From the sequence record PQ536907.1: a stretch of DNA of 64,000 nt. The stretch is one strand, 5' to 3'. A program made the translations under genes and the position numbers. Every line of letters begins with the position of its first letter. Positions within the stretch are counted from its first letter, which is position 1. This DNA is from a phage. Shown piece by piece: positions 4,361 through 13,422 of the stretch. The notes under the pieces were generated by a model that did no database searches, was not told where the DNA came from, and saw only the letters and a program-made list of their open reading frames with translations.

Positions 4361-4413
4361 CCTCATGTTATGTCAGTAAGACTACTATAACACAACACGA
4401 GGGACTTGTAAAC
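4361..4413 (-). promoter_or_regulatory. Early-type promoter plus 5' leader cassette (repeat copy 1)
   Basis: On the - strand: GTTTAC, about 17 nt, TATAGT-like -10, then leader ending in a GAGG ribosome-binding site; about 50 nt near-identical to 19682-19734. Confidence 0.5.
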
Positions 4414-6470
4414 TACATCTTGAACTTTTTAGACATTCCGTTGATGTTAACCAAAGAAGCCAAGATTTGAGAAACTTCGTTTTCCTCTTCTTTTGATTCT
4501 TCTACAAGGAATTGATTAAATCCAGCCATTGGACGAACTTTACCAGTTTCCATTAAATGATCGCCATCATATACTGATTCTTCTAATTGTTCAGAAGGAG
4601 GAACGATTGTACCTTCGATTAGATACTTGTTATAAGCAGTTTCTTTCATAAAGTACGTACTTACTTTATTAATCTTCAGTAAAATTCCACGCGGTAGAAT
4701 AACTTCAGCTTCTGATGGAAATCCTGATAAATGACCTGGAACGATAACTTTGATTCGCTCAGCCCCTTTAATTACCATACCTACGCTAGTTTCAGCATCT
4801 TCATTGGCATATGTAGAATGACTACCCATATGCATTAAATCTTCTGCATCAACGGAACCTTCTCCTTCGCCAGAAAATACTGCGCCGGAATCATCTAGAG
4901 CCATATAGTTTTTACCATGCTCACCGAAGATATTTGGTTTAAGTGATGTCGATACGAAGTTCTTGAAATAGAACATTTTGTTTTCAATGTTATGACGCAA
5001 AGTTTTAAAGGTAACTTCTTGTCCACGGTAAAGTGTAGTTCCTGGAGGAAGAACTGATCCTTTGGCAAAGGCAGAATCTAACGTCTCGATGTGATTAATA
5101 GCTCTTTCCATGTATTCTTCACGGGTAGAATCTGGTTTACCCAAAAGGAACGAGTTCATTTCAACATATGAATCTGCACAATAATCTTCAATTACATCAG
5201 ATTCAGCCTGAGTCAGTCCTTTTGGAGTTACTTCGGTGCTTGCGTATTCATATGCCTGAGCAGCAGATTCATTAATCAATTTATAAATGCCATTCATTAC
5301 AAATTGAATAATAGCTGTCTTTTCATCTGATGTAGCTTTAGAATCTTTAACTAAATCATTGATAATTTTCTTAATAACATCAAAGCTATTAGAAATATTA
5401 ATGTCAGCAAGATCGCTTAAAATTTTATCAGTTTTATAATCAAAGAATTCTTTATTCTTTAAATATTCTTGAGAACCTTGATATGTTATATCGCTCTGCA
5501 GCTTGATAGATGGATCGCGTAAACGTGCATGGGTCAATGCAATATGATTTCGGAAACTTTCTAGTTCATAATCATTAGATTTAAAACGAGAAGCACTTCT
5601 CATACCACCGATAGCTCCTTTGCTGAAGTTTGAACCAATCTGGATAACGCCAGAGTTCATTGGTCCTTCTGCTTTATATACCGGAACTTTAGATTCAAAC
5701 TCTTGATATTTCTTGGCAGCGAAGCTATCACCCTGAAGTGAAGCATCAACAGTAGAATATTGAGCTTGTGCTGCTAATCGACGACTAATTTTAGTTTTCT
5801 GAATAACAGCTTGATCAGTGCGCTTATCATTTTCTAAAGCAATAGAAGCAGCAACAGCGACAGCTTTAGGAACAGCATTACCTGTTTTAACGTCTACATA
5901 AACATCACCAACCTTTGATTCAACTTTTGTGAATAACTCAGTTGAAATAGGAGGTACACCTGGAATGTCTTCTAAATTGGCATTTTTACGGTAAACCATA
6001 ATATATGCATATTTTTTATCATAGTCCCAGATTTCCTTTAAAAGAACATATCGACCTGCTCCCTTAGTACGTACTAAACGGTCAGCAATAACTTGCATTT
6101 GACGAGCTGCGCCATTTGTTTTACTTTTTAGTACGCGGAATAGGCATGCGTCGATTTTATACTGTTTCATTGTTTGAAGAGCAGTATCAAAAACAGCATT
6201 AATGACGCCAATTGGATTTCCACCCAAGTTTCTAAGCTTAACCAGCGATAATTTCTCGTTGACACCTATCATTACGATATGCATCATTTTATCGCCCGGC
6301 TTAACGTTTTTATTTGTATCACCACCGGAGGTGTATGTACAAAATCTAAATCCAGGAAGCACGCTTTCTTCGCCGACTTGAATAGCAAAAATTTGTGGTA
6401 TTTTATGCTTAGGATTTAAGTTAACAACCGGCGCCGAAGCGCCGTCAAATAATTCTGTAATAAGTTCCAT
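4413..6470 (-). CDS. Alt-like mono-ADP-ribosyltransferase paralog (685 aa)
   Basis: N-terminus MELITELFD...LNPK.KIPQIF shared with the neighbouring Alt; C-terminal R-S-E motifs (LYRG, STS, EAEVILPRG). Confidence 0.8.
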   Translation of the reverse strand: MELITELFDGASAPVVNLNPKHKIPQIFAIQVGEESVLPGFRFCTYTSGGDTNKNVKPGDKMMHIVMIGVNEKLSLVKLRNLGGNPIGVINAVFDTALQTMKQYKIDACLFRVLKSKTNGAARQMQVIADRLVRTKGAGRYVLLKEIWDYDKKYAYIMVYRKNANLEDIPGVPPISTELFTKVESKVGDVYVDVKTGNAVPKAVAVAASIALENDKRTDQAVIQKTKISRRLAAQAQYSTVDASLQGDSFAAKKYQEFESKVPVYKAEGPMNSGVIQIGSNFSKGAIGGMRSASRFKSNDYELESFRNHIALTHARLRDPSIKLQSDITYQGSQEYLKNKEFFDYKTDKILSDLADINISNSFDVIKKIINDLVKDSKATSDEKTAIIQFVMNGIYKLINESAAQAYEYASTEVTPKGLTQAESDVIEDYCADSYVEMNSFLLGKPDSTREEYMERAINHIETLDSAFAKGSVLPPGTTLYRGQEVTFKTLRHNIENKMFYFKNFVSTSLKPNIFGEHGKNYMALDDSGAVFSGEGEGSVDAEDLMHMGSHSTYANEDAETSVGMVIKGAERIKVIVPGHLSGFPSEAEVILPRGILLKINKVSTYFMKETAYNKYLIEGTIVPPSEQLEESVYDGDHLMETGKVRPMAGFNQFLVEESKEEENEVSQILASLVNINGMSKKFKM

Positions 6471-6473
6471 GAT

Positions 6474-8570
6474 TTATCCTTGAACGAACTTGTAAGGCAT
6501 GTTTGTAATATCTATGCAAGACGCAATAATTCCAAGAGATGATTCTACTTTCTGTTTAACGTTTGATGAAACAAATGATGCAAAGTCAACTCTGTCTTCT
6601 ACTTCAATATCACCTGTCATTGCAACTACTTCACCGGTTTCCATTAAATGGTCTCCGTCATAGATTACCGATTCGGTGAGCTCTTCCGTAGTCATAACTT
6701 CAGCTTGAATGAGTTTTGTATTATTAGATGTTGTTCCGTCATTATTAGAAGCATCAGTTATTTTATTAACTTTGACCATCAATCCACGCGGTAGAATAAC
6801 TTCAGCTTCTGTTGCTATTCCGAGACTTCCTGGATATACAACATTAACTTTATGAGCTCCATCAATTGCCCATCCTATTTGAACTTTAACGTATTCAGGA
6901 TTTTCTTTATACGCTCTTATTTCGTTTGGATTAATAGTTATTCCTTCTTCATTTTTATCAACTGTCAATTCATTACGAGCTTCTGGTTCTAAAAGACCAA
7001 TACCAGCATGTGTAATTCCAAAACGCCCAAAAATGATAGGAGTTAAAGAAGTAGATACAAAATTTCTGAAATAGAACACTTTATTTTTAACTAGCGCTTC
7101 GTATATAGGAGCAGTCATACTTTGAGCACGATAAACTGTAATGCCTTCCGGTATGCGGTCACCATTTTCAAAAGCTGAATCTAAATTATTTATAGCAGAT
7201 TCAATTTCTTTTTCACTCATTACATCATATCGTTCTGGATTGTAACGACCTAAAAGAAGATTATTGATGTCAGTATATCCTGAACCACAATACTCTCTAA
7301 TGCCGCGCTTTTGTGATGGAGTATATTTAGAACCATCACGGGCAATAGTAATATCAATCATTGGACCTGCACCAATTCCAGAAAAACTATAAATCATTCT
7401 TTTGAGGAATTTAGTTTTTGCTGCATTCCAGGCATTTTTAGTTATTTCTTCCCAGACTTCATCTGGCTGCCCTTTACGAGTTTTATTATGTTTATCAAGC
7501 CAATTATCTTTATATTCTTCAAAGAGTTGATTAACAGCTGCTGCGTATTTCTCTAAACATTTTATTGAAGTAGTTGGTTCATTTTTAATCGCATTAAGAA
7601 TTACATCTTTAATTTTTTCAGAAACTTCATTAACCTCACTTTTTGAAAAGAATTTATAGTCATAATGAAGTTCATCTGCAGTTCCTTCAGCAATAATTTT
7701 TGCTGCCTTAGTTTTAGAAGCTAATGAATTAATTCCAATTTTCATTTCTTCTGCTTCGGGAATTAAAGGTGCAGTAGCTGGTTTATTAAAATTAGCTGCT
7801 GTAGATTCATACTTCTGGAATAATTCACTTTCAAATCTAGAAGATTCCAATGACTGGCTTTGTGCAATTGCTCTACGGGAAATTTTAACTTTAACGATTA
7901 CAGCTTGGTCAGAACGTTTATCATTTTCTTGTGCAATAGATGCTGCAATTGCCTCATTTTTGGTTACTTGGGCTCCAGTATCTTTATTGATATAAACATC
8001 ACCGACTTTCGATTCAACTTTAGTAAAGAGCTCGGTACTAATTTCCGGAACTCCTGGAATGTCTTCTAGTGATACATTTTTACGATGTATAAGAATATAT
8101 GCATACTTTTTATCGTAATCCCAGAGTTCCTTAAGAAGGACGTATCTGCCACCTGAACGACTACGGATAAGTCTATCAGCAATAACTTGAATTTGTCGAG
8201 CTTGACCAGCGGTTTTAGACTTAAGAATACGAAGCATACAAGCATCAATTTTATATTGACGCATTGTTTGCATTGCAACAGTAAAAACTGAATTGATATA
8301 ATTAATTGGGCTTGGACCAAGACCTTTTAATTTAGCAATTGAACCTTTAGCAGTTAATGTAAAAGGAACGATATGCATCATTTTATCGCCCATTTTTAAA
8401 TCGCGATTAGTATCACCTCCAGATGTATACGTGCATAAACGAAAGCCTGGTTGTTCAATTGCATCATCAACATGAACTGAAAAAATTTGTGGTATTTTCT
8501 TCTTTGGATTTAAGTTTGTAATCGGAAGAGTAGTATCTTCGTCAAATAATTCTGTAATGAGTTCCATCAT
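6474..8570 (-). CDS. alt: RNA polymerase ADP-ribosyltransferase Alt (698 aa), capsid-packaged type
   Basis: N-terminal MELITELFD resembles a capsid-targeting sequence; C-terminal R-S-E motifs (YRA, STS, EAEVILPRG); adjacent to the ligase as alt is in T4; late promoter upstream. Confidence 0.8.
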   Translation of the reverse strand: MMELITELFDEDTTLPITNLNPKKKIPQIFSVHVDDAIEQPGFRLCTYTSGGDTNRDLKMGDKMMHIVPFTLTAKGSIAKLKGLGPSPINYINSVFTVAMQTMRQYKIDACMLRILKSKTAGQARQIQVIADRLIRSRSGGRYVLLKELWDYDKKYAYILIHRKNVSLEDIPGVPEISTELFTKVESKVGDVYINKDTGAQVTKNEAIAASIAQENDKRSDQAVIVKVKISRRAIAQSQSLESSRFESELFQKYESTAANFNKPATAPLIPEAEEMKIGINSLASKTKAAKIIAEGTADELHYDYKFFSKSEVNEVSEKIKDVILNAIKNEPTTSIKCLEKYAAAVNQLFEEYKDNWLDKHNKTRKGQPDEVWEEITKNAWNAAKTKFLKRMIYSFSGIGAGPMIDITIARDGSKYTPSQKRGIREYCGSGYTDINNLLLGRYNPERYDVMSEKEIESAINNLDSAFENGDRIPEGITVYRAQSMTAPIYEALVKNKVFYFRNFVSTSLTPIIFGRFGITHAGIGLLEPEARNELTVDKNEEGITINPNEIRAYKENPEYVKVQIGWAIDGAHKVNVVYPGSLGIATEAEVILPRGLMVKVNKITDASNNDGTTSNNTKLIQAEVMTTEELTESVIYDGDHLMETGEVVAMTGDIEVEDRVDFASFVSSNVKQKVESSLGIIASCIDITNMPYKFVQG

Positions 8571-8619: not shown

Positions 8620-8808
8620 TTAATAATCTAGTGGTAAGAGAGTACGATATATTTCAAACTTTGGTCCTTTTTCATAGGCATCAAATGTTTCTGTAAATTT
8701 ATTATAAGCGTATGCATCTACAAATTCGAGAATGACTTGTGATACAGAAGTAGAAACATCTCCACCTTCTTTTTGAGCAATGACAATTGTTTCTAAGTAA
8801 GCTTTCAT
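8620..8808 (-). CDS. Hypothetical protein (62 aa), translationally coupled to DNA ligase
   Basis: ATG overlaps the ligase stop (ATGA); stop lies inside a GC hairpin (aaaggcccgaaggccttt). Confidence 0.45.
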   Translation of the reverse strand: MKAYLETIVIAQKEGGDVSTSVSQVILEFVDAYAYNKFTETFDAYEKGPKFEIYRTLLPLDY

Positions 8809-10268
8809 AGACCAGTTACCTCATGAAAATCACCAAATACATCTTCGAATGTATTAGCTTTAGTTTTATCTTCACGTAAACGAATCGCAATCGGAAGAAA
8901 TAATTTAACGTAATCAGTGCGGCCATCAGATTTTAACCAACCGTTGCATTCGCACTCTAGAATTTTTCCAATATAATAATTTTGGTTTTCCATAATGCGA
9001 GTACGGTCAAGCTCATGTGATTTTACGCCGGCTTTATCTTTTAAGCCTGAACCAGCATTTACTTTAATTTTTCCACACTCTGATTCAAGAATAAATCCAC
9101 CTGCTTTAGTAGGGTCTTTACGGTGAGGATAAATTCCTACAATTTTTAAATCAACATCAATTACTTCTTTAAATTTATAGAGATTTTTTGAACGAGCATT
9201 TTCCCATAATCCATCGATATTTTTGAGAATAATACCTTCAAGACCTTGGTCAATATACTTTTTATAAATTACCTTAGCTTCATCTAGGTTATTTACTACT
9301 TGGTTTTCAATTAAAATTACTTTATCATAGCCTGATGTCATTTGTTCTAGTTTAGAAAAACGTACATCATATTTTAAACGAAATGCTGGAAGACCGTATA
9401 TTTCTACCAACGGAACATAATCCCAGACCTGAAACTTCATGCATTGAGCTTCTTTTTCTGAAATAGTTCCCTTTAAAGATTTATTAGCGATTCCATTAGA
9501 AGTAGTACGTGATTCAGCTACTTCAGCAAACTCTTTAGCTTTACTAATTTCAGGATAAGCATCAAAAAGAAAATCTAGGCCTTCTGGCTCCTTTTTAACT
9601 TGCTCATGGTATACCAATTCGCCATCAATTAACACACCTTCTGGATGAATCTGGCGGGCTTCAGCGGTCATTTTGATTAACTCTTCCTTAAGAAGATCTA
9701 ATCCTAGATATTCATTACCAGCTCGTGATAAAAGACGGACATCATCTAATTCATCACCTCTAACTTCAGCAAAACACCGAGCTCCATCTGCTTTTAATTG
9801 TGCAAAGGCTGGAAATTTGATATTCTTACTAATGCCTTTTTCATCATAAGAACTTGCGAGCATTTGAGGTTGTTCAGGAATTAAACCTGGCCAAACTTTG
9901 TTTGCAATAGATACTGAAGCACCACATTCAAGGTCTCGCATCATCACTCGACGCAAAACTTCAACATCATCTTTTTTACCATCGGTGATATATCCAGATA
10001 ATTCCTCAATTGCCGCATTTCCGGTCAATTTCCGAGTAGCTAACGTGAATTCAATGAAGTCAAGCATATCGGTAAGAGTCAACATTCCAAAACTCTGGGT
10101 AGCAATACCCGGTTTAGGCCATTTCTTGATATAATACTGTAACCCACGAGAATAAGTCAGACGATATACTCGTTTAAGCAATTCATTATCTTTATTCTTT
10201 TCAAGAATTGCTTGCTTCTGCTTAGTTGAACCAATAGATGCTATTTCGTTCAGAATTTTAAGAATCAT
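8805..10268 (-). CDS. 30: ATP-dependent DNA ligase gp30
   Basis: 487 aa; sequence matches my recollection of T4 DNA ligase (MILKILNEIASIGSTKQKQAILEKNKDNELLKRVYRL...); adenylation motif KADG. Confidence 0.95.
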   Translation of the reverse strand: MILKILNEIASIGSTKQKQAILEKNKDNELLKRVYRLTYSRGLQYYIKKWPKPGIATQSFGMLTLTDMLDFIEFTLATRKLTGNAAIEELSGYITDGKKDDVEVLRRVMMRDLECGASVSIANKVWPGLIPEQPQMLASSYDEKGISKNIKFPAFAQLKADGARCFAEVRGDELDDVRLLSRAGNEYLGLDLLKEELIKMTAEARQIHPEGVLIDGELVYHEQVKKEPEGLDFLFDAYPEISKAKEFAEVAESRTTSNGIANKSLKGTISEKEAQCMKFQVWDYVPLVEIYGLPAFRLKYDVRFSKLEQMTSGYDKVILIENQVVNNLDEAKVIYKKYIDQGLEGIILKNIDGLWENARSKNLYKFKEVIDVDLKIVGIYPHRKDPTKAGGFILESECGKIKVNAGSGLKDKAGVKSHELDRTRIMENQNYYIGKILECECNGWLKSDGRTDYVKLFLPIAIRLREDKTKANTFEDVFGDFHEVTGL

Positions 10269-10534
10269 TGTTCATCCTTTAGAGTTTGGTTTACAGCTCT
10301 ATTATAAATCAATTCATCATTAAGCTCAGTCAAAGACCTGTGGTACGTGGTTCTAACTTTATTTCCTTGCATCCAATGCTTGACGTAAATGAAACCTTGC
10401 TCTACACATTTTTTAAAAATTCGTTCGTCTTTTTGAGCTCGGAATTCTGGATTGCATCTAAAAAATTGATTTACGTGACCGTAATCACGTGTAGTATTAC
10501 CTTCATTTTCATAAATAGTGTGAACAACAAACAT
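10265..10534 (-). CDS. Hypothetical protein (30.1-like, 89 aa)
   Basis: ORF overlapping the ligase start region; first ORF of the 30.x cluster. Confidence 0.5.
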   Translation of the reverse strand: MFVVHTIYENEGNTTRDYGHVNQFFRCNPEFRAQKDERIFKKCVEQGFIYVKHWMQGNKVRTTYHRSLTELNDELIYNRAVNQTLKDEQ

Positions 10535-11370
10535 TAGAATGCTCCTTGGAAAATATTATCACCACTAGTAGGTCTATTATACAAATACTCTATACCACCG
10601 GGTTTAATATAGTTCCATGTCTGAAACGGATGCGTCTGATATGGATGATATGGATTATAAGGATTAAATCCAGGAGTTCTCCAGGTAGTGTTCCAACGAA
10701 AAGAATCATTTTTAATCATCTTTTCAATTACATCTTTTATAGCTTTTTCACTATCAAAACTTTCTTTATTTTCCTTCGGTGAAAAAAGCTTATTCTCTAC
10801 ATCGTTCCATGTATAAACTCGCTGAGCGGTTTTTGGAATACTGTCACGTTCCCCTCGAGCCATCCAATACACAGGAACACGTAATATTTCACTCGCATGA
10901 TCGCAGTGGTGAGCGAGATCGTCAATATAACAAATTACGTTATATTTCTCTTTTGCCTTTTTGAACAACTCTTCTTTTGAAGAATCATGACCACACATCA
11001 TTACTTCTGAGAAGGCACCAGGAAAAAGAGCATTCAAATTAAATTGACGATTCAACAGAGCGTCAATAGAATCACCCAATGCTGTAACAGCTACAAAATT
11101 ATAATCTTCTTTTAATTTGTTAATTACACACAGAGCATCTTTATATGGAGACAAGTAACGAATAAAATCTGATCGATTGTATTTTTCAATTAACTTGACG
11201 CCAAGTTCTTCATCACAATTAAAAAGTTTACCTGGAGAAATAAATTTTTCATCCTGGATCATTTTTAAAATATGTTCCAACGGAAGATTATATTTCTGAG
11301 CAAAATAAGGAAGGCCTGATTGCCAGCTTAAACATACTCCATCAATATCAGTTAAAATAGTAGGCTTCAT
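10534..11370 (-). CDS. HAD-superfamily hydrolase-like protein (30.2-like, 278 aa)
   Basis: N-terminal DIDGV motif (HAD motif I, DxDG); ATGA-type coupling to neighbours. Confidence 0.6.
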   Translation of the reverse strand: MKPTILTDIDGVCLSWQSGLPYFAQKYNLPLEHILKMIQDEKFISPGKLFNCDEELGVKLIEKYNRSDFIRYLSPYKDALCVINKLKEDYNFVAVTALGDSIDALLNRQFNLNALFPGAFSEVMMCGHDSSKEELFKKAKEKYNVICYIDDLAHHCDHASEILRVPVYWMARGERDSIPKTAQRVYTWNDVENKLFSPKENKESFDSEKAIKDVIEKMIKNDSFRWNTTWRTPGFNPYNPYHPYQTHPFQTWNYIKPGGIEYLYNRPTSGDNIFQGAF

Positions 11371-11831
11371 AGAGAGTCTCTTAATAGGTTTAACACATCA
11401 ATAAATTCAGCTTCGGTTAGTATTGTATCATCTTTTGTTAGACCACTAGCCATGCTGTGCTTCAAAACTTTTCCTTTCGAGGCTTGTAATGCATCGCGAA
11501 AGCCCCTGTTTTGGAACGCTGCTTCAAAATATGCATTTGTGTATAATTCTTTCCACGCTGGAGAGTATCTTGAAAACGGAACTCCAAGCCAGAAGAGGGT
11601 CCCACGGTCCTGAGCTCTTGCATAAGACCTTCCAGCTTGTTGGGCGGCAAGACCGGATAACCCAAATATACGACGTTGCTGTTCAATATTTTTCACCTTA
11701 CACCCTTGGAGGAATCCTTCGAGACCTCCAAATTGGATACCATCCATAACAAAAGGCCATTGGGCGAAATTACTTAATGCGCATGATGGCCATCTAAAAT
11801 TGCTTCTAATCTCTAACTCAGACATTTTCAA
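11367..11831 (-). CDS. NADAR / YbiA-like (DUF1768) protein (30.3-like, 154 aa)
   Basis: Motif CALSNFAQWPFVMDG resembles the YbiA/NADAR signature (DFSNFAAWPIKVDG) as I recall it. Confidence 0.6.
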   Translation of the reverse strand: MKMSELEIRSNFRWPSCALSNFAQWPFVMDGIQFGGLEGFLQGCKVKNIEQQRRIFGLSGLAAQQAGRSYARAQDRGTLFWLGVPFSRYSPAWKELYTNAYFEAAFQNRGFRDALQASKGKVLKHSMASGLTKDDTILTEAEFIDVLNLLRDSL

Positions 11832-12024
11832 TACTTATAATTTCAACATCAGCCCAATGACCATAGCAAGGAAGACGAAATTCAACTGGCCAGTTAGGGT
11901 CCTTTTCTAATATAATAGACTTAACTTGTGGTTCTTCGTGTTCATCAGTATATGGATTTTTATCTGTTACTTTATATGTGACCTTAATGTACTGAATTCC
12001 AAAAATCTTATTAATTATATTCAT
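11818..12024 (-). CDS. Hypothetical protein (68 aa)
   Basis: ORF tightly packed in the 30.x cluster, overlapping its neighbours. Confidence 0.45.
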   Translation of the reverse strand: MNIINKIFGIQYIKVTYKVTDKNPYTDEHEEPQVKSIILEKDPNWPVEFRLPCYGHWADVEIISIENV

Positions 12025-12979: not shown

Positions 12980-13312
12980 TTATTTTACTACTTTCCAATG
13001 CTGCATGTCAAGTTTACCAACTTTTTTCATCTTCTCAATTAAGCGTTCGGCACGTTGGCGAGCTGTAACATAATGCCATTCGCCTAATTCATTTTGTTCA
13101 ATTTTTCCAACGATTACTGTATTCAATTCATAAATCCAACCAGTAAAGAAATTATGAACTTGAATTGTAAAGGTGAAATCTGTTCCCATACCTTCTGTTG
13201 TTTCTACTTCAATAATATCACCTTCAACTGCCATTAAGAACCACATAGTTTCATCATATTTACCATTGAAGCATTTAGTTTTAACTGTAGCGTTCAGATT
13301 AATCGTTTTCAT
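12980..13312 (-). CDS. Hypothetical protein (110 aa)
   Basis: ORF in the 30.x cluster. Confidence 0.5.
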   Translation of the reverse strand: MKTINLNATVKTKCFNGKYDETMWFLMAVEGDIIEVETTEGMGTDFTFTIQVHNFFTGWIYELNTVIVGKIEQNELGEWHYVTARQRAERLIEKMKKVGKLDMQHWKVVK

Positions 13313-13422
13313 TTTATTCTCCTTTGTTTGTGTAAGATAATACTATCACAAAGGAACCGTACTGTAAACAACTTTGTGCAATCTTTGGAAAATAAAAAAG
13401 GACTCCCGAAGGAGTCCTCAAC

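Follow-up and report, generated by a model that had tools for sequence, protein, structure and literature searches.

The window, meaning the whole 64,000-nucleotide stretch of DNA analysed here (record PQ536907.1), comes from a Tequatrovirus, a T4-like phage, and the two genes discussed below, 30.3 and 30.2, both lie on its minus strand. Gene 30.3, or adfN (11367..11825, minus strand), encodes a phage-type NADAR of 152 residues, predicted from the function of the T4 orthologue to be a guanine-ADP-ribose glycohydrolase (PMC11825919); its N-terminal NADAR signature segment, CALSNFAQWPFVMDG, covers residues 15-29 (11739..11783, minus strand). Gene 30.2 (10534..11370, minus strand) encodes a predicted HAD-superfamily phosphatase of 278 residues, with a DIDGV motif at residues 8-12 (11335-11349, minus strand). 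The genes share four nucleotides at 11367..11370 (minus strand), where direct reading gives CTATGAAG: the TGA stop of 30.3 together with the ATG start of 30.2. Each of the two proteins has homologues in more than 1400 phage records, so neither reading frame is a chance one. The first-pass annotation had given the smaller frame 154 residues, as in the open reading frame listing, where it begins with a TTG at 11831; the gene is real, but this start was dropped, since in the annotated T4 genome and in every full-length homologue the protein begins two codons on, at an ATG (MSELEIRS...) that lies here at 11825 and yields 152 residues.

Directly upstream, gene 30.4 (11818..12024, minus strand; 68 residues, phrog_2042) overlaps the start of 30.3 by 8 nucleotides, and its product is 97% identical to T4 gp30.4. 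Downstream of 30.2, with an overlap of one nucleotide, comes gene 30.1 (10265..10534, minus strand; 89 residues, DUF3045, PF11243 at E 2.9e-64), followed by gene 30 for the ATP-dependent DNA ligase (8805..10268, minus strand; 99% identity to T4 gp30); the order from 30.6 to 30 as a whole is that of T4. Two full-length Alt-like genes (PF03496; 6474-8570 and 4413-6470) lie about 2 kb downstream of the 30.3/30.2 pair. The HAD-type frame with its DIDGV motif, the coupled junction, and the nearby ADP-ribosyltransferase genes that had been described for this interval were all found, on the minus strand. In a consensus scan only, the sequence closest to a sigma-70 promoter (TTGACA/18/TAAAAT) is at 12982..13011 (minus strand), upstream of 30.7, and would be a candidate early promoter for the run of genes from 30.7 to 30; in the same scan, promoter and terminator site counts were no different from those in shuffled sequence, and the promoter count was not above the shuffled expectation.

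gp30.3 as a phage-type NADAR

The product of 30.3 is 97% identical to T4 gp30.3 (148 of 152 residues) and matches PF08010, "Phage_30_3", over the entire model (positions 1-138 of 138; E 4.8e-69, 231 bits against a cut-off of 36 bits)—a family that the literature calls phage NADAR. The canonical NADAR model, PF08719, gives no match to gp30.3 at E<=0.1, and 13 of 75 members of the gp30.3 family match it, below threshold only (best E 1.2e-6). A profile search for DUF1768/NADAR, proposed earlier as a check, therefore has a divided outcome: the canonical model fails, but PF08010 matches and a profile of the gp30.3 family (64 sequences) finds Escherichia coli YbiA as its top match in the PDB (E 0.0011). 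At the level of sequence the links to YbiA are borderline, with E-values from 0.058 to 0.0011, and single-sequence phmmer searches of gp30.3 and gp30.2 against the PDB returned nothing significant. In the profile-versus-PDB alignments CALSNFAQWPFVMDG is paired with the YbiA segment FSNFAAWPIKVDG, and N19 of gp30.3 is invariant in the 64 family members.

The fold points the same way. In an AlphaFold2 (AF2) model of gp30.3 (pLDDT 83.3, pTM 0.81) the YbiA fold, an alpha-helical core with small beta-hairpins at its flanks, is present, and a Foldseek search of the PDB with this model places three solved NADARs at ranks 1-3—2b3w (YbiA), 8bat (G. lovleyi) and 8bau (P. nicotianae)—with every other match at E>6. 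The catalytic residues are also in place: across 64 family sequences E36 is invariant and K43 at least 90% conserved, and in YbiA they are matched by the E and K within SEHYFQAQK. The corresponding Glu and Lys (E43/K50 in PnNADAR, E36/K43 in AdfN) bind the distal ribose and pyrophosphate (PMC11543638, PMC11825919). H123, at least 90% conserved in the family, sits in the model's last strand (120-124), at the place where phage NADARs have a His instead of the Glu found in YbiA and the Asp found in DarG1 (PMC11125620, PMC11543638). The C-terminal helix (138-151) is present in this full-length protein of 152 residues. The proposal of a NADAR/YbiA-like protein is thus borne out by the PF08010 match, the profile link to YbiA, the three NADAR structures as best folds, and the retention of E36, K43 and H123.

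YbiA (2b3w; PF08719, NADAR/DUF1768) is the best relative of gp30.3 by both fold (Foldseek E 2.4e-5) and profile, and has the SNFxxWP...E..Q..K motifs in common with it; however, the two proteins are only 18% identical, the last-strand residue of YbiA is Glu, and the YbiA family model misses gp30.3. YbiA has been linked to an N-glycosidase activity on riboflavin intermediates and to swarming. It does not rescue DarT1 toxicity (PMC11125620). A second comparison is with DarG1 and the other DarT1-associated NADAR antitoxins (BC4488 family; Schuller et al., Mol Cell 2023, PMC11543638), which resemble AdfN in fold, in hydrolysing guanine-N2-ADP-ribose in DNA, and in neutralising DarT1 enzymatically instead of binding it. 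AdfN differs in being a bare core domain that lacks the N-terminal additions of DarG1, in carrying His at the position of the catalytic Asp, in being encoded away from any toxin gene, and in its failure to substitute for DarG1 in uninfected cells (PMC11825919).

A probable counter-defence against DarTG1

Published work on T4 gp30.3 names it AdfN and describes it as a glycohydrolase that acts on guanine-ADP-ribose in DNA (Johannesman et al., Nat Commun 2025, PMC11825919). Once adfN is deleted, neither T4 nor T2 forms plaques on DarTG1 hosts, AdfN supplied alone rescues RB69, and the purified enzyme strips ADP-ribose from DNA while the E36A variant does not; the RB69 allele, which lacks the last 15 residues and with them the C-terminal helix, is inactive, and a two-hybrid assay found no interaction between AdfN and DarT1 (PMC11825919). 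In vitro the T4 enzyme acts on guanine-ADP-ribose in DNA and RNA, leaving thymine- and cytosine-ADP-ribose in place (Toxins 2024 and 2026; PMC11125620, PMC12945103). Transposon data for T4 agree: 30.3 is dispensable in the absence of DarTG1 and strongly required in its presence, with a log2FC of -7.25 (q 0) in the dataset of the HIDEN-SEQ preprint table that we recognise as DarTG1 by its place in the file and the 30.3 signal rather than by a printed header (10.1101/2025.11.20.689424). Insertions in 30.4 are mildly depleted on DarTG1 (log2FC -1.79, q 0.014; 10.1101/2025.11.20.689424), probably through a polar effect on 30.3.

The earlier suggestion of a counter-defence against ADP-ribosylating host toxins is therefore supported by experiment for the 97%-identical T4 protein (PMC11825919, PMC11125620, PMC12945103, 10.1101/2025.11.20.689424), and it was right about 30.3, although this role is already known from the literature. 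The present protein shares with its T4 orthologue the gene order 30.4-30.3-30.2-30.1-30, the residues E36, K43 and H123, and the intact C-terminal helix; it departs from it at four positions, all conservative (V47I, I104F, K107R, I125M), its activity being predicted from sequence, and this phage has also lost the ATG of 30.3', an internal out-of-frame reading frame of T4. No DarT gene lies beside 30.3, whose neighbours are 30.4, 30.2, 30.1 and the ligase gene; the nearest ADP-ribosyltransferases are the Alt-like PF03496 proteins, an arrangement that fits the published description of AdfN as an orphan antitoxin.

We consider it very probable that 30.3 encodes an AdfN-type NADAR glycosidase and that 30.2 encodes a HAD phosphomonoesterase on which the anti-DarTG1 mechanism does not depend. 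On this model both genes in the interval would be early genes of the T4-like phage. Host DarT1 would ADP-ribosylate guanine N2 in replicating phage DNA, and AdfN, as a minimal N-glycosidase of the NADAR fold, would hydrolyse the ribose-guanine bond, releasing ADP-ribose and returning the DNA to its unmodified state so that replication can proceed; it would do this as an orphan antitoxin, without binding the toxin. For this phage we infer the mechanism from the 97% identity to T4, the intact catalytic residues, and the C-terminal helix; the intact allele predicts resistance to DarTG1. The mechanism appears to lack one element: in E. coli that carries no phage AdfN fails to neutralise DarT1, and it helps T5 or Bas25 only weakly (PMC11825919), and thus a further T-even factor or context is missing from it. 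We considered gp30.2 as this required factor and dropped it, since T4 with an insertion in 30.2 is unaffected on DarTG1.

gp30.2 and the meaning of its position

The neighbouring protein is 98% identical to T4 gp30.2 and carries all four HAD motifs (D8xD10, T96, K132, D150-D151): among 37 homologues D8, D10 and K132 are invariant, with conservation of 90% or more at T96, D150 and D151. Its AF2 model has a Rossmannoid HAD core (pLDDT >90 over the core), with a capped, NT5C-like core from residue 1 to about 220 followed by a disordered aromatic and Pro-rich tail. A fold search of the PDB gives 110 matches at E<=0.001, with HAD-type enzymes among the matches listed and a 5'(3')-deoxyribonucleotidase, 2jao, as the best (E 1.7e-8). 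The HAD assignment made from the DIDGV motif thus stands. A profile of the gp30.2 family also finds 2jao first in the PDB (E 0.025), aligned on the motif DxDGVLxxWxSGL, and fold neighbours from viruses carry 5' nucleotidase annotations; haloacid dehalogenases score almost as high as 2jao. Pfam gives no family match, PF06941 included, NCBIfam gives a spurious sub-threshold match only, PHROG 420, to which the protein belongs, is annotated "unknown function", and a literature search on gp30.2 returned nothing relevant.

The probable nearest relatives are the deoxyribonucleotidases cdN and mdN (NT5C, PF06941; 2jao, 2i7d, 1mh9), which share with gp30.2 the HAD core with its alpha-helical cap inserted behind motif I, the sequence DxDGVLxxFxSGL, and the DD of motif IV, with TM-scores of about 0.64-0.71 when normalised to the target. 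In contrast to these enzymes, to which it is just 14-19% identical and whose family model, PF06941, does not recognise it, gp30.2 has an extra C-terminal tail of 60 residues. We would describe gp30.2 as a putative, catalytically intact, cap-bearing HAD phosphomonoesterase closest to the 5'(3')-deoxyribonucleotidases, whose substrate is most likely a small molecule of nucleotide type that it dephosphorylates; the gene is closely packed among 30.3, 30.1 and the ligase gene, with which it would be co-transcribed.

Genetic data argue against a required role of 30.2 in the defence. In T4 all 72 of its 72 TA sites are hit, so the gene is non-essential, and insertions are neutral both on DarTG1 (log2FC -0.12, q 1, 71 sites) and in minimal medium (-0.10) (10.1101/2025.11.20.689424). 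From these published transposon data, 30.2 is not needed for anti-DarTG1 defence. The layout also says less than it might seem to. Translational coupling had been read as a sign of partnership, and we dropped this argument because ATGA overlaps are ordinary T4 gene packing: of 90 same-strand junctions in the window, 30 overlap, 15 of them by four nucleotides. The ATGA overlap is real, but as a functional argument it is weak, given such generic overlaps, a ligase gene that is the more faithful neighbour, and the neutral insertions. Co-occurrence of 30.2 and 30.3 across genomes was likewise set aside as uninformative, because both belong to the quasi-core of Straboviridae and their profiles across genera are the same (1440 versus 1511 records).

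The strongest alternative concerns gp30.2 alone and has close to an even chance, falling somewhat short of it: a (deoxy)nucleotidase of nucleotide-pool or DNA metabolism, grouped with DNA ligase and nucleotide genes, with no link to ADP-ribose and with its adjacency to 30.3 an inherited synteny. Across T4-like phages no other neighbour of 30.2 is as constant as DNA ligase—its gene adjoins gp30.2 homologues in 72 of 77 IMG/VR loci, compared with 29 of 77 for 30.3, and does so on the opposite side in L092 and L096-L101. The closest structures, cytosolic and mitochondrial 5'(3')-deoxyribonucleotidases, favour such a role, as do the nucleotidase annotations of the viral neighbours and a quasi-core status that empties the co-occurrence with 30.3 of information. 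It is opposed by the absence of any 30.2 phenotype in rich or minimal medium, and it leaves conserved NADAR-NT5C fusions unexplained.

Those fusions are the core of a second, unlikely alternative, in which gp30.3 and gp30.2 form a two-enzyme module for processing ADP-ribose: the NADAR would cut the base-ribose bond and the NT5C-like HAD enzyme would take a phosphate off the product or a by-product, as an accessory, non-essential step that improves fitness. Its substrates may include ADP-ribosylated or released (d)GMP (that is, ADP-ribosylated guanine mononucleotides), phosphoribosyl remnants, or ADP-ribose phosphates. One fusion protein, P0135, joins PF08010 to a PF06941 NT5C domain (E 1.6e-16), the two following each other from N to C terminus as the genes do in T4, and its full-length relatives occur in genomes of about 27 species of gut Bacteroidales. 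In four of the five fusion loci examined an ADP-ribosylglycohydrolase gene is adjacent, which hints at a non-essential link of 30.2 to ADP-ribose chemistry, and at L105 another NADAR and RtcB are among the neighbours. The gp30.2 profile aligns with the fusion HAD domain on DxDxVLVxFQSGL (hhalign E 1.9e-4, probability 47%); a gp30.2 HMM run against multidomain proteins of the gp30.3 family gave no matches and left the fused NT5C domains undetected. The HAD domains of the fusions are of the canonical NT5C kind rather than the gp30.2 kind.

Within phages, the order 30.3-30.2-ligase is kept in divergent T4-like genera that have lost the flanking 30.1 and 30.4 (for example L069, L072, L074, L076, L079, L080, L086 and phage Aeh1), and in L021 the order is the opposite, with the gp30.2 homologue placed 0.7 kb upstream of the NADAR gene. 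The need of AdfN for a further T-even factor (PMC11825919) would also suit a module. Against it stand the neutral effect of T4 30.2 insertions on DarTG1 and the activity of purified AdfN alone in vitro, together with a 58-kb separation of the two genes in Karamvirus and the mostly missing gp30.2 near gp30.3 homologues of about 40% identity. The closest relatives of the window's two alleles differ (ES12 and PhiZZ6), and therefore the alleles recombine independently. HAD domains are so common that chance fusions are expected, and some fusion members have degenerate HAD motifs. It is accordingly doubtful, in our estimate, that the split T4 pair is the counterpart of a conserved, undescribed Bacteroidales NADAR-NT5C fusion with gp30.2 as the accessory partner of the NADAR.

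The targets of Alt, ModA and ModB are protein side chains. That gp30.3 mainly tempers these enzymes of the phage itself rather than host toxins is highly improbable: 30.3 lies near two alt-like genes, and a comparative study has T4-like NADARs expressed early along with the ADP-ribosyltransferases (PMC9503650), but the requirement for 30.3 follows DarTG1, the substrate on which activity has been measured is guanine-ADP-ribose in DNA and RNA, and alt insertions are neutral on DarTG1—the last two being the results that left the earlier idea of a regulator of the phage's own ADP-ribose chemistry unsupported.

Our preferred reading, an AdfN-type glycosidase beside a HAD phosphomonoesterase that the defence does not require, makes 30.3 a published, experimentally characterised anti-defence gene with an intact allele in this phage, and leaves gp30.2 as the only part outside the literature searched. 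If gp30.2 does cooperate with NADARs, the reversal of ADP-ribosylation on nucleic acids would gain a second enzymatic step, and a gene of some 1400 sequenced T4-like phages would gain a function, in a role that the genetic data argue is non-essential.

The 30.3–30.2 locus

The window is Tequatrovirus (T4-like phage) DNA; at nucleotide level the interval shares 98–99% identity with many T4-like phages of Escherichia, Shigella, and Citrobacter, and the gene order of the T4 reference NC_000866 is reproduced (alt - alt.1 - 30 (DNA ligase) - 30.1 - 30.2 - 30.3 - 30.4 - 30.5 - 30.6). Gene 30.3 (11367-11825, minus strand) encodes 152 residues, 148 of them identical to T4 gp30.3, and gene 30.2 (10534-11370, minus strand) encodes 278 residues with 98% identity to T4 gp30.2. 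The ORF listing alone gives gene 30.3 as 11367-11831, with the TTG start adopted in the first-pass annotation; we replaced this start with the ATG at 11825, two codons downstream, because the T4 annotation and full-length homologues begin there. The remaining features described in that annotation are present: both ORFs, their motifs (gp30.3 residues 15–29; gp30.2 residues 8–12), a 4-nt overlap (ATGA) at their junction, and nearby ADP-ribosyltransferase genes—two Alt-like genes (PF03496) about 2 kb downstream.

The Alt-like genes are full-length and in tandem (4413-6470 and 6474-8570, minus strand), whereas T4 has one alt gene and the short remnants alt.-1 and alt.-2. Of the two products, one shares 70% identity with T4 Alt, its ends nearly unchanged and its middle diverged, and the other shares 41%. 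Elsewhere in the cluster, a strong terminator-like hairpin lies between 30.9 and 30.8 (13398-13419, minus strand; GAGGACTCC-TTCG-GGAGTCCTT, then a T run), and upstream of 30.7 a site (12982-13011, minus strand) comes close to the sigma-70 promoter consensus. Both calls are consensus matches only; together they may delimit an early transcription unit holding 30.3 and 30.2.

T4 also annotates an internal out-of-frame ORF within 30.3, named 30.3' (75 aa, +1 frame; 11462-11689, minus strand). Its ATG is ATA in the window—the same base change gives V47I in gp30.3—and the first possible start left is a TTG. Nine of ten homologues with 84–99% identity retain the 76-codon open frame; in one 45%-identity homologue its length is 66 codons, and homologues at about 40% identity do not retain it.

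gp30.3 as a NADAR and anti-DarTG1 factor

gp30.3 is a NADAR, as the first-pass annotation proposed. Taken literally, the profile check suggested there is negative: PF08719 (DUF1768/NADAR) gave no match to gp30.3 at E ≤ 0.1, and the protein falls in PF08010, ‘Phage_30_3’ (score 231 bits, cut-off 36). Several lines of independent evidence nevertheless link the PF08010 family to NADARs. The structure prediction also suggested there, an AlphaFold model built from a 10-sequence alignment (pLDDT 83, pTM 0.81), has meaningful PDB matches only to E. coli YbiA (2b3w, E 2.4e-5), a Geobacter lovleyi NADAR (8bat), and a Phytophthora NADAR with ADP-ribose bound (8bau); all others have E > 6. YbiA is likewise the top PDB sequence match of the family profile (E 0.058 with 11 sequences, 0.0011 with 64), with the SNFxxWP...E..Q..K segment spanned by the alignment. 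Searching 1.84 billion cluster representatives with a profile gave 1449 relatives; among those scanned, PF08010 matched 75 of 75 and PF08719 also touched 13 of 75, below threshold. Across 64 family sequences E36 is invariant, and K43 and H123 are each conserved in at least 90%. E36 and K43 have been named as ADP-ribose-contacting catalytic residues, and the hallmark of phage NADARs is a last-strand histidine, at the position occupied by Glu in YbiA and by Asp in DarG1 (PMC11825919, PMC11125620, PMC11543638).

Published T4 work shows the proposed counter-defence against ADP-ribosylating host toxins to be correct; the finding is real and correctly interpreted, yet it is an already known anti-defence gene. 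Earlier comparative work, as cited in PMC11825919, had counted T4 30.3 among NADARs. Purified T4 gp30.3 removes ADP-ribose from DNA guanine, not thymine (PMC11125620), and does not remove cytosine-linked ADP-ribose (PMC12945103). Johannesman et al. renamed the gene adfN, for anti-DarT factor NADAR: without it T4 and T2 cannot plaque on hosts carrying DarTG1 (the DarT1 toxin with its DarG1 antitoxin), and supplied adfN rescues RB69, in which the native allele carries a frameshift and is missing its final 15 residues (PMC11825919). In the same study AdfN was weakened by E36A and by K43A, did not bind DarT1, removed ADP-ribose from DarT1-modified DNA in vitro, and appeared to need an additional T-even factor for full activity (PMC11825919). 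A T4 transposon screen on DarTG1 agreed: 30.3 insertions were strongly depleted (log2FC -7.25, q=0; 10.1101/2025.11.20.689424, Extended Data Table 6); we identified the control-vs-DarTG1 sheet by file layout and the 30.3 signal, then cross-checked it. The window's allele is full length, retains the C-terminal helix (residues 138–151), and differs from T4 solely by V47I, I104F, K107R, and I125M.

The alternative that the NADAR regulates the phage's own ADP-ribose chemistry finds no support, because the activity measured was against guanine adducts, and insertions in alt were neutral on DarTG1 (10.1101/2025.11.20.689424). Gene 30.4 (11818-12024, minus strand) overlaps the start of 30.3 by 8 nt; in T4, the mild but significant depletion of insertions in it on DarTG1 (log2FC -1.79, adjusted p 0.014; 10.1101/2025.11.20.689424) is therefore most simply explained by polarity or translational coupling affecting adfN.

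gp30.2 and its pairing with 30.3

The HAD assignment of the neighbouring ORF holds: gp30.2 is predicted to be a genuine HAD phosphatase, with conserved motifs I–IV and HAD-type fold matches, and searches of Pfam and NCBIfam found no family for it. Of the motif residues, D8, D10 (both motif I), and K132 (motif III) do not vary across 37 aligned homologues; at least 90% of these also keep T96 (motif II) and D150-D151 (motif IV). The AlphaFold model, confident at residues 1 to ~220, has as its top PDB fold match the cytosolic 5'(3')-deoxyribonucleotidase 2jao (E 1.7e-8), ahead of further NT5C-type proteins and generic HADs (110 matches in all at E ≤ 0.001); 2jao is also the profile's best PDB match (E 0.025, aligned on DxDGVLxxWxSGL), and viral fold neighbours carry 5' nucleotidase annotation. 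In HAD enzymes a helical cap points to a small-molecule substrate, not a nucleic-acid end; the ~80-residue insertion between motifs I and II forms such a cap and would thus point to a small molecule for gp30.2. The aromatic- and Pro-rich tail (residues ~220–278; 10534-10710, minus strand) is predicted to be disordered (pLDDT below 50); W, Y, P, and N abound in it, and its length differs widely across homologues. Near the C-terminus of divergent members the short motif G-(T)-G-IEYL-x-x-(Q/R)PT recurs, a possible docking peptide.

Translational coupling had been read as a sign of partnership. The ATGA overlap is present, but such overlaps are generic; on most of the evidence the pairing means nothing beyond the usual close packing of T4 genes. 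Among 90 pairs of adjacent same-strand ORFs in the window, 30 overlap (15 by 4 nt), and in T4 nearly every junction of the 30.x cluster does. Across 77 IMG/VR loci gp30.2 tracks ligase more than 30.3: the ligase gene adjoins the gp30.2 homologue in 72, and a gp30.3 homologue lies within ~1.5 kb in 29. The two genes lie apart in some lineages: in Karamvirus (Pet-CM3-4) 58 kb separate 30.2 from the gp30.3 homologue, which is located in the tRNA region, and gp30.3 homologues at ~40% identity mostly lack a neighbouring gp30.2. Each gene occurs in about 1450–1500 phage records with an identical genus profile; both are quasi-core in Straboviridae, so their co-occurrence is uninformative. For gp30.3 the window's allele matches that of phage ES12 at 100% identity; for gp30.2 it matches that of Citrobacter phage PhiZZ6 at 100% but that of ES12 at just 91%. 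The two alleles thus recombine independently, and the interval (10534-11825, minus strand) is mosaic, implying a recombination junction near the gene boundary.

Published genetics settles the role of 30.2 against DarTG1: insertions at 71 TA sites were neutral (log2FC -0.12, q=1), as they were in minimal medium, and the gene is non-essential (10.1101/2025.11.20.689424). This neutrality rules out gp30.2 as the T-even factor that AdfN seems to need for full activity.

A NADAR–NT5C fusion family in Bacteroidales

One gp30.3-family representative, P0135 (330 aa), joins an N-terminal PF08010 domain to a C-terminal NT5C domain (PF06941, E 1.6e-16)—the T4 gene order, 30.3 then 30.2—and has P0140 and P0246 as relatives. 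Scanning one genome per species, we found full-length relatives in ~27 gut Bacteroidales genomes (Prevotellaceae, Bacteroidaceae, Muribaculaceae, and Rikenellaceae); our literature search found no description of this architecture. The fusion genes, members of a conserved family with NADAR plus NT5C-type HAD domains, lie at 6001-6993 of the P0135 contig (L105) and around 5001-5960 of loci L111, L113-L116, L118, L126, and L131. An ADP-ribosylglycohydrolase gene (PF03747) adjoins the fusion in four of five loci examined, and neighbours of P0135 include a second NADAR and RtcB. The gp30.2 profile aligns weakly with the fusion HAD domain (hhalign E 1.9e-4, probability 47%), and the gp30.2 HMM did not detect that domain.

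The fusion is evidence of the Rosetta-stone type for possible cooperation between gp30.3-type NADARs and NT5C-type phosphatases in chemistry related to ADP-ribose. By analogy, T4 gp30.2 might cooperate with the NADAR in such chemistry; we consider this unlikely, and given the neutral genetic data any such role would be non-essential.
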